From the IMG/VR virus record IMGVR_UViG_2574180275_000003: DNA of 28,980 bases. The stretch is one strand, 5' to 3'. The notes beneath the pieces were generated by a model. It saw only the letters and a list, made by a program, of their open reading frames with translations, ran no database searches and had not been told where the DNA came from. Numbering within the stretch: the first letter of the stretch is position 1; each line of letters begins with the position of its first letter. Position numbers and translations under genes: made by a program. Of this stretch, positions 10,672-17,039 are shown in pieces. This stretch comes from a virus (taxonomy: Duplodnaviria > Heunggongvirae > Uroviricota > Caudoviricetes).

Positions 10672-11841
10672 ATGAAGAAATTAATCGAACTCCGCCAGCA
10701 AAAAACCGCCCTGAAAAACCAGATGCGATCCCTGCTGGAAAAAGCCGACAGTGAAAACCGCAGCCTGAACGATGACGAGGGCAAACAGTTTGATGAACTG
10801 CGTGCAAAAGCCGATTCCCTCGACACAGAAATTTCCCGCCTCGAGTCTGTGGCTGATGAAGAACGCAGCAAGCCAGGAACGGGCATCCAGAAATTATCAT
10901 CTGATGAATTGCGTAACTATATCGTAACCGGAGATGTGCGATCACTGTCCACCAGCACTGACAGCGGCAGGGATGGCGGATATACCGTAATTCCTGAGCT
11001 TGATCGCGAAGTCATGCGCCAGCTACAGGATGACAGTGTTATGCGCGTGATCGCGACCGTGAAGACCGCAAAATCAAATGAGTTTCAGAAACTGGTTTCC
11101 ACTGGCGGCGCAACTGTAGGAAGAGGCACAGAAGGCAGCGCGCGCAGCGAAACCAACACCCCGAAAATTGAACGCGTAACCATCAAGCTGAATCCGATCT
11201 ACGCCTACCCGAAAACCACGCAGGAAATCCTGGATTTTTCAGAGGTGGATATTCTGGGCTGGTTATCCTCCGAAATTGCCGACACGTTCGCCAGCACCGA
11301 AGAGGATGATTTTGTTAATGGCGACGGTAACGGCAAGCCGAAAGGATTCATGGCTTACACCCGTGCGGCGACCAGTGACAAAACCCGCGCTTTTGGCACC
11401 ATTGAAAAAATGGTAGCGGCAAGTGGAACCGCCATTACAGCGGACGAACTGATCGACATTCTCTACAAGCTGAAAGCGAAATACCGCAAAAATGCCGTCT
11501 GGGTGATGAACTCGGGCACGGCAGGGACACTACAGAAGCTGAAAAATGAGAACGGCGATTATATCTGGCGCGACAGCCTTAAAGAAGGTGCGCCGGATAT
11601 GTTGCTTGGTCGTCCTGTTTACTGCCTGGAGTCCATGCCGGACATCGGCGCAGGAAAAGCACCGCTAGCGGTTGGCGATTTCAGTCGTGGTTATTTCATC
11701 GTTGATCATGTAACAGGGATTCGCACCCGACCGGACAACATTACTGAACCCGGATTCTACAAGGTCCACACGGATAAATATCTGGGCGGTGGTGTGGTGG
11801 ATTCAAACGCCATCAAAATTCTGGAAATGAAAGCTGGCTAG
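10672..11841 (+). CDS. major capsid protein, HK97-fold, with N-terminal coiled-coil delta domain
   Basis: 389 aa; paralogous to the prophage capsid protein at 20370-21575 (GDGNGKPKGFMAY / GDGTKKPKGFLAY; GDFSRGYFIVDH / GNFKRGYTIVDR; DSNAIKILEM / DSQAIKLLKI). Confidence 0.85.
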   Translation: MKKLIELRQQKTALKNQMRSLLEKADSENRSLNDDEGKQFDELRAKADSLDTEISRLESVADEERSKPGTGIQKLSSDELRNYIVTGDVRSLSTSTDSGRDGGYTVIPELDREVMRQLQDDSVMRVIATVKTAKSNEFQKLVSTGGATVGRGTEGSARSETNTPKIERVTIKLNPIYAYPKTTQEILDFSEVDILGWLSSEIADTFASTEEDDFVNGDGNGKPKGFMAYTRAATSDKTRAFGTIEKMVAASGTAITADELIDILYKLKAKYRKNAVWVMNSGTAGTLQKLKNENGDYIWRDSLKEGAPDMLLGRPVYCLESMPDIGAGKAPLAVGDFSRGYFIVDHVTGIRTRPDNITEPGFYKVHTDKYLGGGVVDSNAIKILEMKAG

Positions 11842-11853
11842 TCATGAGTAAGG

Positions 11854-11875
11854 AGGAGGCTGCGGCCTCCTTTTT
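11854..11875 (+). terminator. stable hairpin after the capsid gene (partial terminator / mRNA stabiliser)
   Basis: AGGAGGC-tgcg-GCCTCCT followed by TTTT, 13 bp after the capsid stop codon. Confidence 0.45.
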
Positions 11876-11895
11876 CAGCTTTATGGAGTACACCG

Positions 11896-14309: not shown

Positions 14310-14749
14310 TGCCATGGCAACCATTAAGGCGATGCACTGAGCCGGGCTGTAATAAGCGCGTGAAGTCCGGCAAGTGTGAAGAGCACAGGCGGGCTGCATG
14401 GCGTGCAGAGGATGCCAGACGGGGACACCGCCGCGCACGTGGGTATTCCCGACTGTGGGACAAATACCGCGCCATGTACCTGAAAAAAAATCCGTTATGC
14501 GTGCGTTGTCTGGCTAAGGGTATTTATACGCCAGCTCTTGTGGTGGATCACATCATTCCCATCAATGGCGGCGGTGATGTTCTCTTCTGGCCTGAGTGGA
14601 ACCACCAGGCATTGTGCCAGACGTGCCACAACCGTAAGACGACACGGGAAGATCCAGCCACGAAAGCGAACCGTAAGGCGGGCATGTATCGCGAGCAGGA
14701 AGAACGGGCGGCACATCGTAACGACTGGATGTATGGCGATGATGACTGA
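14309..14749 (+). CDS. HNH endonuclease, packaging-associated
   Basis: 146 aa with CxxC...DHIIPINGGG...LCQTCH, homologous to the prophage HNH at 166-516; TGATG-coupled to the connector gene. Confidence 0.85.
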   Translation: MPWQPLRRCTEPGCNKRVKSGKCEEHRRAAWRAEDARRGHRRARGYSRLWDKYRAMYLKKNPLCVRCLAKGIYTPALVVDHIIPINGGGDVLFWPEWNHQALCQTCHNRKTTREDPATKANRKAGMYREQEERAAHRNDWMYGDDD

Positions 14750-15037
14750 ACAGGAGCAAAACAGGCTGATACGTGGACTGATAAGGCAGCGTGACTTATG
14801 GAAGACACAGGAGACAGGGCACAAAGCCAACAGGACAGAGCGCACAGAACGCACCACAGCGAAGCGATTAACCGACCGTGACCGCGAGGTCATGGAATGT
14901 TTTCGCAATCGCTGGTGAGGCCGTCAGAGGGGGTGGGGGAGGTTTTCAGGACGAAACCGCCCCTGCCGGACACCGACCGCCTCCTCAAATTTTTGTGCAC
15001 GGGAATTTTTTTGAAAATAATTGGGCGAAAAAAGAAC
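14750..15037. promoter_or_regulatory. candidate cos / terminase recognition region of the satellite (HNH-terS spacer)
   Basis: Non-coding spacer with a G-rich block (gagggggtgggggagg), accgcccc / ccgcctcc and T7 runs, similar in layout to but distinct in sequence from the prophage spacer 517-664. Confidence 0.3.
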
Positions 15038-15394
15038 ATGGCAAGACCACCAAAAGCCCCCGCTTACCTGGATGAAATCGCGGTCAGGCAGTGGAAGGAA
15101 AAATCGCGCCAGCTTTCCGGACGGGAAGACCTTACCCCCGCCGACTGGAGCAATCTGGAGCTGTATTGCGTTAACTACTCCCTATACCGCAAAGCCGTCG
15201 AAGACCTTGCCACGCGCGGGTTCAGCATTGTTAACAGTCAGGGCAGCGAGAGCAGAAACCCCGCCCTGAGCGCAAAGGCTGACGCGGAAAGAATAATGAT
15301 CAAAATGGCTTCTTTGCTGGGTTTTGACCCGGTAAGTCGCCGCAGAAATCCACCGGAAACAGAGGAAGAGGACGAGCTTGACCGCCTGGCATGA
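15038..15394 (+). CDS. terminase small subunit (P27-like family)
   Basis: Start at internal ATG 15038 (MARPPKAPAYLDE...), matching the prophage TerS N-terminus MSGPPKTPP; acidic C-terminus; overlaps terL. Confidence 0.8.
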   Translation: MARPPKAPAYLDEIAVRQWKEKSRQLSGREDLTPADWSNLELYCVNYSLYRKAVEDLATRGFSIVNSQGSESRNPALSAKADAERIMIKMASLLGFDPVSRRRNPPETEEEDELDRLA

Positions 15395-17039
15395 GTACGC
15401 AGAAGGCGTAAAAAACGGCAAAATTACGGCCTGTAAACGACTGAAACAGGCCGTTAAACGGTATTTTTCTGACCTTGAAAACCCCCTTTACACGTTCGAT
15501 CCGGAGGTCGTGGAGCGGTTTATTGCCTTTTCCAGGGTGTGTCCGCACGTAAAAGGCGCAATGCGCGGTAGCCCCATTGAGCTGGAGCCGTGGCAGCAGT
15601 TCGCCTTTGCGTGCATCCTGGGCTTTAAGGTTAAGGCCACCGGACGGCGCAAATACACCAGCGCATTCATTGAAGTGCCGCGAAAAAATGCCAAATCCAC
15701 GGTCGCCGCTATCCTGGCTAACTGGTTTCTGGTTATGGAAAACGGGCAGCAGGATATTTACACCGCCGCCGTGAGTCGTGATCAGGCGCGGATCGTGTTT
15801 GATGATGCGCGTCAGATGTGCCTTTTATCCCGACCGTTGCGAAAGCGGGTAAATATTCAGGCACACAAGGTGATACACCCGAAAACCAACAGCCTGTTAA
15901 AGCCACTGGCAGCAAAAGCGGCAACCATTGAAGGTACAAACCCGAGTCTTGCCATTGTGGATGAATATCACCTGCACCCTGACAACGGGGTTTATTCCGC
16001 GCTTGAACTGGGAATGGGGGCGCGTCCGGAGGGGTTATTATTTGCCATCACCACATCGGGGAGCAACGTTGTTTCAGCCTGTAAACAACACTACGACTAT
16101 TGCTGCCAGATACTGGATGGTGAAGAGGTGAACGAATCCATGTTCGTGCTGATTTACGAGCTGGATGATGAAAGCGAGGTTGACGATCCGGCGATGTGGA
16201 TAAAGGCGAATCCCAATATCGATGTTTCCGTCGATCGTGAAAAACTGGCCTCAACCATCCAGAAAGCGCGGGGTATTCCGTCGCAGTGGGTGGAAATGCT
16301 CACCAAGCGATTCAATATCTGGTGTCAGGGGGCCACGCCGTGGATGGGTAACGGTGCATGGGCGGAGTGCGCCGGAACGTTCGCGGAGGCGGATTTATAC
16401 GGGCAGGAGTGCTACGCGGGGCTGGACTTATCATCAACCAGCGATATTTCCAGCGTGTGCTATGCCTTTCCGGTCGGTAAAAAGATTATGCTGGTTTCCC
16501 GTCACTATCTGCCGGAATTTCAGCTACAGAACCCCGCCAATAAAAACCGCGCCATCTATCGCCAGTGGGTAAAGGCGGGCTGGATACGCACAACACCGGG
16601 TGACTGCATTGATTATGACCGTATCCGTGATGACATCATGGCGGATGCAGAGAATTTCAATATCAGGCTGGTGGGTTTCGATACATGGAACGCCACGCAC
16701 CTGAGGACGCAGCTACAGGGCGCAGGATTTGAGGTGGAGCCGTTCCCGCAAACATACCTTCGTTTCAGTCCGGCGGCGAAATCGTTCGAAGTTTTTGTTA
16801 ACCGGAAGGTGATTGTGCATCGTGGTGATCCGGTGCTGGCCTGGTCAATGAGTAATGTTGTGATGCAGAGTGACGCGAACGCCAATATCAAGCCGAACAA
16901 GAAAAAATCATCCAACAAGATAGACCCGAGCGTTGCGGCGCTGATGGCGTTTGGCACATTCCAGGCAGAACATGAGGAATTTGCATTCGATATGAGCGAC
17001 AGCCACAAAGAGCGGCTTGCGACGTTTGATGGTGTGTAA
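15378..17039 (+). CDS. terminase large subunit (intact)
   Basis: 553 aa; apparent TTG start at 15378 with GAGGAAGAGGA upstream, overlapping the terS 3' end; aligns across its whole length with the two prophage terL fragments. Confidence 0.9.
   Translation: MTAWHEYAEGVKNGKITACKRLKQAVKRYFSDLENPLYTFDPEVVERFIAFSRVCPHVKGAMRGSPIELEPWQQFAFACILGFKVKATGRRKYTSAFIEVPRKNAKSTVAAILANWFLVMENGQQDIYTAAVSRDQARIVFDDARQMCLLSRPLRKRVNIQAHKVIHPKTNSLLKPLAAKAATIEGTNPSLAIVDEYHLHPDNGVYSALELGMGARPEGLLFAITTSGSNVVSACKQHYDYCCQILDGEEVNESMFVLIYELDDESEVDDPAMWIKANPNIDVSVDREKLASTIQKARGIPSQWVEMLTKRFNIWCQGATPWMGNGAWAECAGTFAEADLYGQECYAGLDLSSTSDISSVCYAFPVGKKIMLVSRHYLPEFQLQNPANKNRAIYRQWVKAGWIRTTPGDCIDYDRIRDDIMADAENFNIRLVGFDTWNATHLRTQLQGAGFEVEPFPQTYLRFSPAAKSFEVFVNRKVIVHRGDPVLAWSMSNVVMQSDANANIKPNKKKSSNKIDPSVAALMAFGTFQAEHEEFAFDMSDSHKERLATFDGV

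Follow-up and report, generated by a model that had tools for sequence, protein, structure and literature searches.

Phage-inducible chromosomal islands of the capsid-forming type (cf-PICIs) have been described as satellites that are costless to their helper phages, stealing only tails from them. The cf-PICI preprint of Alqurainy et al. reportedly appeared later in Cell Host Microbe (2023). The prototype of these elements, EcCIEDL933 of Escherichia coli O157:H7 EDL933, was studied by mutagenesis and electron microscopy, which showed that it makes its own small capsids, that only the island itself is packaged and that nothing but tails is needed from the helper (10.1101/2022.09.08.507074). In Proteobacterial cf-PICIs the morphogenetic genes come first and are followed by hnh-terS-terL, an order that differs from the helper's, and phylogenies of the capsid and TerL proteins place the cf-PICIs in a clade separate from helper phages (same paper). 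Firmicute cf-PICIs are arranged in other ways: in one group HNH-terS-terL are the first genes of the operon, in the other group portal-protease-capsid. The Proteobacterial gene list and order were later used as a search criterion, in a paper reporting that the adaptor and the connector decide which tails are usable (10.1101/2025.02.11.637232). Late genes of prophages can harbour helper-embedded PICIs (HE-PICIs), for which 14 sites have been described (Tommasini, Mageeney and Williams 2023, PMC10111431). The subject here is a 15.4-kb satellite that lies within a prophage in a 28,980-nucleotide stretch of viral DNA (IMG/VR record IMGVR_UViG_2574180275_000003; "the window" is this whole stretch), and above all its head and terminase genes at 10672-17039.

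The window has three parts: the start of a prophage late region, the satellite, and the late region resumed. All genes of both orders, that of the prophage and that of the satellite, are on the plus strand, as are the left-half genes, the att cores, the doubled motifs, the 61-aa ORF and the hairpins and promoter-like site around the satellite capsid gene; the cos region is given without a strand. Region 10672-17039 is very probably the capsid-and-packaging module of an EcCIEDL933-family cf-PICI in Escherichia coli, having a layout that is fixed throughout its lineage and belonging to an element embedded in the large terminase gene of an HK97-like helper.

The capsid-and-packaging module and its relatives

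Functions were assigned by Pfam profile scans of the open reading frames (ORFs) of the window, and gaps and overlaps were read from the ORF list. The first gene of the module (10672-11841) encodes a major capsid protein with the HK97 fold (Phage_capsid, PF05065, E=2e-71). Its best match among solved structures is 9gyi_B, a "Major head protein" of 385 aa (E=1.7e-155), and the second best is the capsid of the Rhodobacter gene-transfer agent. The next two genes encode a prohead serine protease (11896-12456; Peptidase_S78, E=9e-46) and the portal protein (12458-13681; Phage_portal, E=6e-93), the start of the latter being taken from the PGAP annotation of the 99.9% identical copy in APEC17. The head-closure or head-tail adaptor protein, which forms the interface on the tail side (HCP, 13678-14016; Phage_HCP, PF05521; PHROG 25, "head closure Hc1"), precedes a gp6-like head-tail connector (14013-14309; Phage_connect_1, E=8e-12). 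The module ends with an HNH endonuclease, a packaging accessory (14309-14749; HNH, E=9e-10), a small terminase terS of the P27/Terminase_4 family (15038-15394; PF05119, E=8e-23) and a full-length large terminase terL of 553 aa (15378-17039; TerL_ATPase and TerL_nuclease). All eight morphogenesis and packaging ORFs are present, intact and of full length, with complete coverage of their Pfam domains. The preliminary description of this DNA had given the same order and functions, starting with a capsid protein at 10672, and Pfam confirms every one of these assignments.

That description had also seen the genes as tightly coupled by overlapping start and stop codons, which is true of part of the module only. 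The portal and HCP genes overlap by 4 nt (ATGA), as do the HCP and gp6 genes (again ATGA), while the gp6/HNH overlap is 1 nt and the terS/terL overlap is 17 nt. The protease and portal genes are 1 nt apart. Tight coupling is overstated, however, for the capsid/protease gap of 54 nt, which contains a hairpin, and for the HNH/terS gap of 288 nt.

The order of genes from DUF4222 to terL is identical to that of EcCIEDL933, including a small ORF between HNH and terS. EcCIEDL933 is likewise about 15.4 kb long, lacks tail and lysis genes and carries GCGGGTTAT iterons after its rep gene. The proteins of the two elements are 42% (Int), 58% (AlpA), 83% (Rep), 70% (SSB) and 60% (PerC) identical in the left half and, within the module, 64% (capsid), 63% (protease), 82% (portal), 54% (HCP), 68% (gp6), 84% (HNH), 87% (TerS) and 93% (TerL) identical. 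The elements differ in their sites, EcCIEDL933 being situated in the chromosome between roxA and phoQ and the present element inside a prophage terL gene.

A scan with the capsid protein, using one genome per species, found 80 related loci in Enterobacterales, Orbales and Pasteurellales, with capsids 59-76% identical to the one described here. Every locus of sufficient length (about 65 of the 80) has the order capsid-protease-portal-(HCP)-gp6-HNH-terS-terL, without exception, the HCP often being too diverged for detection or absent. Two cf-PICI-like genomes that were deposited as phages, vB_KppS-Ant (LR881103) and the Pasteurella "phage" Pmp8 (OR544139), also have this order; they come from other hosts, differ in their modules for integration and regulation and, as deposited, do not lie within a prophage. 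Among E. coli genomes, 157 have the packaging module at 95-100% identity. The comparison with capsid-forming satellites, which the preliminary description had proposed, thus bears out its view of an organised satellite operon rather than a scrambled remnant: the eight ORFs are intact and their order is that of EcCIEDL933 and of about 65 other loci. The permuted order is not new, being the published and conserved layout of Proteobacterial cf-PICIs.

The prophage has the genes in a different order: HNH (166-516), terS (665-1147), terL, a small membrane ORF (18304-18486), portal (18486-19727), protease (19669-20355), capsid (20370-21575), gp6-like connector (21826-22131) and HCP (22140-22478). 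Relative to this order the head genes of the satellite are reversed, its HCP/gp6 pair is swapped and its HNH-terS-terL genes form an unchanged block at the right-hand end, where the terL stop codon is 517 nt from the attR core, all on the same strand. On each of these points the coordinates and the Pfam results agree with the preliminary description. What that description leaves out is that the satellite splits the prophage terL, and that the prophage order exists only if the satellite is mentally removed.

Judging by its genes, the prophage is lambdoid and of HK97 type. Lambdoid phages of this type (vB_EcoM-606R7, phi467, ST64B, SfI/SfII/SfIV) have the same eight protein families as the satellite and an HNH-cos-terS-terL block, and their capsids are the closest among true phages, although at most 37% identical to that of the satellite. 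They differ from the satellite in their order (HNH, terS, terL, portal, protease, capsid, gp6, adaptor, tails), in carrying tail and lysis genes and in the sequences of their proteins, which, the adaptor excepted, are no more than 37% identical. HK97 and HK106 are presumed, by reputation, to belong to the phages with this HNH-terS-terL cassette. The induced phage vB_EcoM-606R7, whose terL is uninterrupted, has Q, lysis genes, HNH, terS, terL, a small ORF, portal, protease, capsid, connector and adaptor, which is the canonical phage order, unlike that of the satellite.

Most proteins of the module are only distantly related to those of the resident prophage, with identities of 37% (capsid), 19% (protease), 32% (portal), 35% (gp6), 42% (HNH), 27% (terS) and 31% (terL, compared with the restored prophage TerL). 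The HCP is 63% identical, and a stretch of 100 nt in the two HCP genes is 76% identical at the nucleotide level. Since the seven other proteins are only 19-42% identical, the module is not a recent copy of its neighbour. Nor does its layout, which is that of the whole Proteobacterial cf-PICI lineage, represent a local rearrangement of the adjacent prophage. The best phage matches of the satellite HCP are those of Klebsiella phages (64-69%), as against 54% for the HCP of EcCIEDL933, and among the proteins of the module only the adaptor looks phage-like. Strain XH992 (locus L084) has a 96.7% identical packaging module that lacks the HCP, its portal gene (13020-14234) being followed directly by the connector gene (14227-14529). 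The position of the adaptor looks like an exchangeable cassette that matches the satellite to tails.

Insertion within the large terminase gene of the helper

The core sequence TTACCAA is found at 2168-2174 (attL), inside the prophage terL, and again at 17556-17562 (attR). The element measures 15,388 bp between the cores, within the range of about 10-18 kb known for cf-PICIs. To its left is the N-terminal part of the prophage terL (1147-2174, the first 342 codons), with the TerL_ATPase domain and positions 2-64 of the TerL_nuclease profile; to its right is the C-terminal part (17563-18292), the nuclease domain, covering profile positions 64-283, with the last 241 codons at 17567-18292. In-silico deletion of 2175-17562, that is, of one TTACCAA copy and everything between the copies, yields an in-frame terL of 1758 nt encoding 585 aa. 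Many E. coli genomes have annotated, uninterrupted "terminase large subunit" genes that match the restored junction, 307 nt long, at 100% identity, and in 905 genomes the match extends over at least 80% of its length. Phage vB_EcoM-606R7, with a terL likewise of 1758 nt, matches it at 98.7% identity. The left junction in its occupied form was found in 36 complete E. coli genomes, and in about 900 others the match ends at the core; of about 935 complete genomes that have this terL, 36 are occupied. In APEC17, where the element is 98% identical overall, the PGAP annotation has the island between a terL "missing C-terminus" and a "TerL endonuclease subunit, missing N-terminus".

The satellite is co-oriented with the interrupted gene. 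The truncated terL frame enters unrelated satellite codons and ends at a TAA (2338-2340) situated 6 nt before the ATG of int (2346). With its stop so near the int start, the truncated terL could let helper late expression feed into int. The C-terminal part of terL is without a functional N-terminus. As the satellite is inserted within terL, the gene of the helper is broken, and presumably unusable, until the satellite excises.

The insertion site is A:Terminase_1:246 of the HE-PICIs, and the element appears to belong to that very group (e.g. Eco1645.15.A_Terminase_1_246). Like that element it comes from E. coli, is about 15 kb long and has the core "ttaccaa", the same attachment arms and a doubled TGTATTGC motif on both sides; according to the supplementary table of PMC10111431, the elements at A_Terminase_1_246 in E. 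coli are about 15 kb long and have the att identity "ttaccaa". As in other HE-PICIs of this site, it is co-oriented with the interrupted late gene, and its zones follow the order Int/AlpA, Bro, Replication, Late. In the published attL and attR alignments (SuppFile3/4), the A_246 rows have the same sequence as the arms found here at 2178-2275 and 17505-17562. The terL gene is split at position 64 of the TerL_nuclease profile, which together with the 178 positions of the ATPase profile makes about 242, close to 246. The older single Terminase_1 profile presumably joined the ATPase and nuclease domains, which would make the two numbers comparable. At the level compared, no difference from the A:Terminase_1:246 group was found.

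The doubled motif tgTGTATTGCantgTGTATTGCa is specific to HE-PICIs and has been suggested as the target of the integrase arm domains or of AlpA (PMC10111431). It is present here on both sides of the att core, as GTGTATTGC(A/G)CTGTGTATTGC, at 2304-2326 (downstream of the attP centre) and 17459-17481 (upstream). The downstream motif starts 133 bp after the core centre and the upstream motif ends 78 bp before it; the published spacings are 132 +/- 2 and 81 +/- 2 bp from the attP centre, respectively, an agreement to within about 1-3 bp given that the measuring points are undefined in PMC10111431. Because the attP arms and the motif are identical, membership of the integrase in the single HE-PICI integrase clade is implied.

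Left half, cos region and candidate regulatory sites

The left half of the satellite, as assigned by Pfam, is of PICI type. It begins with a tyrosine integrase having an arm-binding domain (2346-3554; Phage_integrase and Arm-DNA-bind_3), followed by an AlpA-family regulator (3802-4110; Phage_AlpA) and a Bro-N anti-repressor-like protein (4165-4746). Several small ORFs separate the Bro-N gene from a DUF4222 gene (6736-7050), after which come a DUF927 primase/replicase of 706 aa (7047-9167), a single-stranded DNA-binding protein (SSB, 9378-9803) and, directly upstream of the capsid-led block, a PerC-family activator (9807-10097). The integrase, the AlpA regulator and the primase/replicase are co-oriented, which is the arrangement by which cf-PICIs are recognised. 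No tail or lysis genes were found between the att sites by Pfam, by PHROG or in the APEC17 annotation, the other ORFs being regulators or unassigned. A tRNA scan of the window gave no match, and a search of the whole window against Rfam at gathering thresholds gave neither C4/isrK-type immunity RNAs, which are known from some PICI Bro zones, nor any other match.

The cos site of the satellite probably lies at about 14919-15037, within the HNH/terS gap. It is placed there because vB_KppS-Ant, a virion-derived record, is linearised exactly between its small ORF of the 61-aa type and terS, so that the record starts with terS and ends after HNH. Region 14919-15037 is conserved in EcCIEDL933; with the HNH-terS spacer of the prophage it has only a short G-run and CCTCCTCA motifs in common. 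Just upstream of the presumed cos, a basic 61-aa ORF (14733-14918; PHROG 3173, E=1e-28) overlaps the end of the HNH gene. It is annotated at the equal position in APEC17, EDL933 (EcCIEDL933), XH992 and vB_KppS-Ant.

Consensus scans place a terminator-like hairpin at 10402-10428 and a promoter-like site at 10495-10522, upstream of the capsid gene. EcCIEDL933 matches the 50 nt that follow this hairpin (10428-10477) at the corresponding place, with 92% identity. They hold a repeated GGTTGTTC, and the adjacent 22-mer ATTCTGGCTGATGTTTACATAC (10482-10503) recurs at 86% identity at 17172-17193, inside the second of two iteron clusters. Both GGTTGTTC and ATTCTGGCTGATGTTTACATAC may be regulator-binding sites.

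A GC-rich hairpin with a T-run, resembling a terminator or attenuator, is situated directly 3' of the capsid stop codon (11849-11875). Its predicted RNA fold has an energy of -19.7 kcal/mol (z=-3.7), and none of 200 shuffled sequences was as stable. Of 70 distinct spacers between capsid and protease genes in related cf-PICIs (loci L002-L082), about 65 have a comparable hairpin and T-run, usually with the stem GGGGC/GCCCC in place of the GGAGGAGGC/GCCTCCTCC stem found here. The hairpin is compatible with attenuation or with stabilisation of the mRNA in favour of capsid protein, which is offered as a suggestion only.

The 9-mer GCGGGTTAT has 30 matches in the window at no more than one mismatch, compared with 5.4 expected. 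It is clustered at 9191-9313 and at 17121-17272, and in each cluster an AT-rich spacer separates the forward copies from the reverse copies that come after them. The first cluster follows the rep gene, the usual position of a PICI origin, and the second follows terL, near attR. In EcCIEDL933, by contrast, the two clusters are direct neighbours, both of them behind rep (8836-9149 of that locus, L082). The cluster after terL may be a relocated or a second origin.

In the prophage, the HCP gene is followed by gp10-like and gp17-like tail completion proteins, the tail tube and the tape measure. Translation of 18304-18486 gives a true hydrophobic ORF of 60 aa, as the preliminary description had it, with two hydrophobic stretches. 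A membrane-like protein between terL and portal is odd; phage vB_EcoM-606R7 has its equivalent annotated as "head-tail joining protein W", APEC17 as "hypothetical". A 16-mer, TGGCGGGTTTTTTTAT, is identical at 3803-3818, at the start of the satellite AlpA-like ORF, and at 23295-23310, between the tail-completion and tail-tube genes of the prophage, and it resembles the 3' half of intrinsic terminators. A large direct duplication, considered because 1-1000 and 15001-16000 have equal composition rows, was rejected when a repeat search gave short diverged matches only.

Origin of the gene order and consequences for the helper

By homology with EcCIEDL933, in which every one of these genes has been mutated, and at 63-93% protein identity, the module would build small capsids used by the satellite alone. 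The satellite DNA would be packaged at its own cos by its own HNH, TerS and TerL proteins, and only tails would be taken from the HK97-like helper. The module might be transcribed as one unit from about 10.5 kb, starting at the promoter-like site that follows the first hairpin, and transcription of the helper late operon may read through the co-oriented element, as Tommasini et al. proposed. The position of the capsid gene at the front, together with the hairpin behind it, might help to set a high ratio of capsid to enzymes.

Several observations weigh against this reading. Expression, excision and particle formation of this copy are predictions from its sequence. The placement of cos is deduced from the linearised record and the promoter from a consensus match; the promoter and terminator scans gave no enrichment over shuffled sequences, and individual sites are suggestive only. 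Covariation in the post-capsid hairpin is weak, with four pairs predicted and almost none covarying, in an alignment in which the GGGGC/GCCCC stem hardly varies and the register shifts. The hairpin is also not specific to the capsid-first order, since the resident prophage, with its classical order, has one 3' of its own capsid gene (21578-21604). The reversal of the head genes on the same strand is explained neither by the present data nor by the papers cited here.

It might be supposed that the satellite recently captured the module from the resident or a similar helper, through aberrant or integrase-mediated excision of an embedded ancestor, and that the capture permuted the order. The element does lie in the late region of a helper beside homologous genes, the HCP, with the 100-nt stretch in its gene, is 63% identical to the helper's, and HNH-terS-terL adjoins attR, where left-flank DNA might be expected to land after aberrant excision. 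A PICI with two prophage segments in reversed order, abutting at its integration site, has also been reported (Tommasini et al., PMC10111431). Nevertheless, such an origin is most improbable, because the seven other proteins are too different from those of the resident prophage, because the same order accompanies unrelated integrases in EDL933 (roxA/phoQ), XH992 (rcnR/thiM), Pasteurellaceae and Orbales, and because capture of a block cannot reverse three genes while keeping their strand. For the resident prophage itself, recent capture was rejected in view of the identity levels and the taxonomic spread. Still harder to believe is that this part of the window holds a second prophage in tandem, or what remains of a decayed or scrambled one, without a functional satellite operon. 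Phage-type head and terminase genes inside a prophage might suggest this, and automated annotation gives them only generic phage names. However, the eight ORFs are of full length with complete domain coverage and no frameshifts or truncations were found in them, the element has no tail or lysis genes, and its left half is the int-alpA-Bro-primase(DUF927)-SSB series of a PICI. Its att sites are precise and its empty site clean, the module is shared by the 157 E. coli genomes at 95-100% identity, and experiments on EcCIEDL933 have shown capsid formation for the family.

A further proposal concerns why the order exists, and it is compatible with the cf-PICI layout described here without replacing it. 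Selection might have favoured a capsid gene next to the promoter and followed by a partial terminator, with the enzymes last, as this would set the stoichiometry from the satellite's own promoter without Q antitermination by the helper. The hairpin and promoter-like site just before the capsid gene, the PerC-family activator gene directly upstream, the stable hairpin and T-run that recur behind the capsid gene in about 65 of 70 related spacers, and the conservation of the order across three bacterial orders are all consistent with it. The proposal remains tentative and is rather doubtful, being drawn from sequence, because the Firmicute groups start their operons with HNH-terS-terL or with portal-protease-capsid, so that a capsid-first operon is not required, and because the helper has a post-capsid hairpin in the classical order too.

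Neither inversion of a block, which would have flipped the strand, nor capture of a block, which would have retained the phage order, accounts for the three reversed head genes on an unchanged strand. The order is shared with the XH992 element, which has a different integrase and is situated in the chromosome between rcnR and thiM, and with elements of Pasteurellaceae and Orbales; it therefore predates the integration module that targets terL. It is best treated as an old trait of the lineage, and as Firmicute cf-PICIs use other orders, it is not required for the cf-PICI lifestyle.

Both the permuted order and the terL-embedded configuration have already been published, and as an observation on gene order nothing is added here to what is already in print on cf-PICIs. 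The observation is of use for annotation. Where a capsid-first head module that ends in HNH-terS-terL stands beside an integrase/AlpA/DUF927 block, the element is a cf-PICI rather than a broken prophage, and a "terminase large subunit" pseudogene found split in an E. coli prophage can be the sign of a satellite embedded in its helper.

The element also joins two literatures, on cf-PICIs and on HE-PICIs, neither of which cites the concept of the other; PMC10111431 does not use the term cf-PICI, nor does it discuss the late-zone gene order of the A:Terminase_1:246 group. The helper function hit by the insertion, the large terminase, is one that the satellite does not need. It is conceivable, although unlikely, that an embedded cf-PICI blocks packaging of helper DNA while sparing the helper tails and carrying its own HNH-TerS-TerL, so that it would be interfering rather than commensal, with the adaptor as a locally tuned interface to the tail. 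More speculative still, the reversed gene order may be a footprint of stepwise capture by embedded ancestors. If the interference were real, embedding in the helper terL would change the reported costless relation of these satellites with their helpers.

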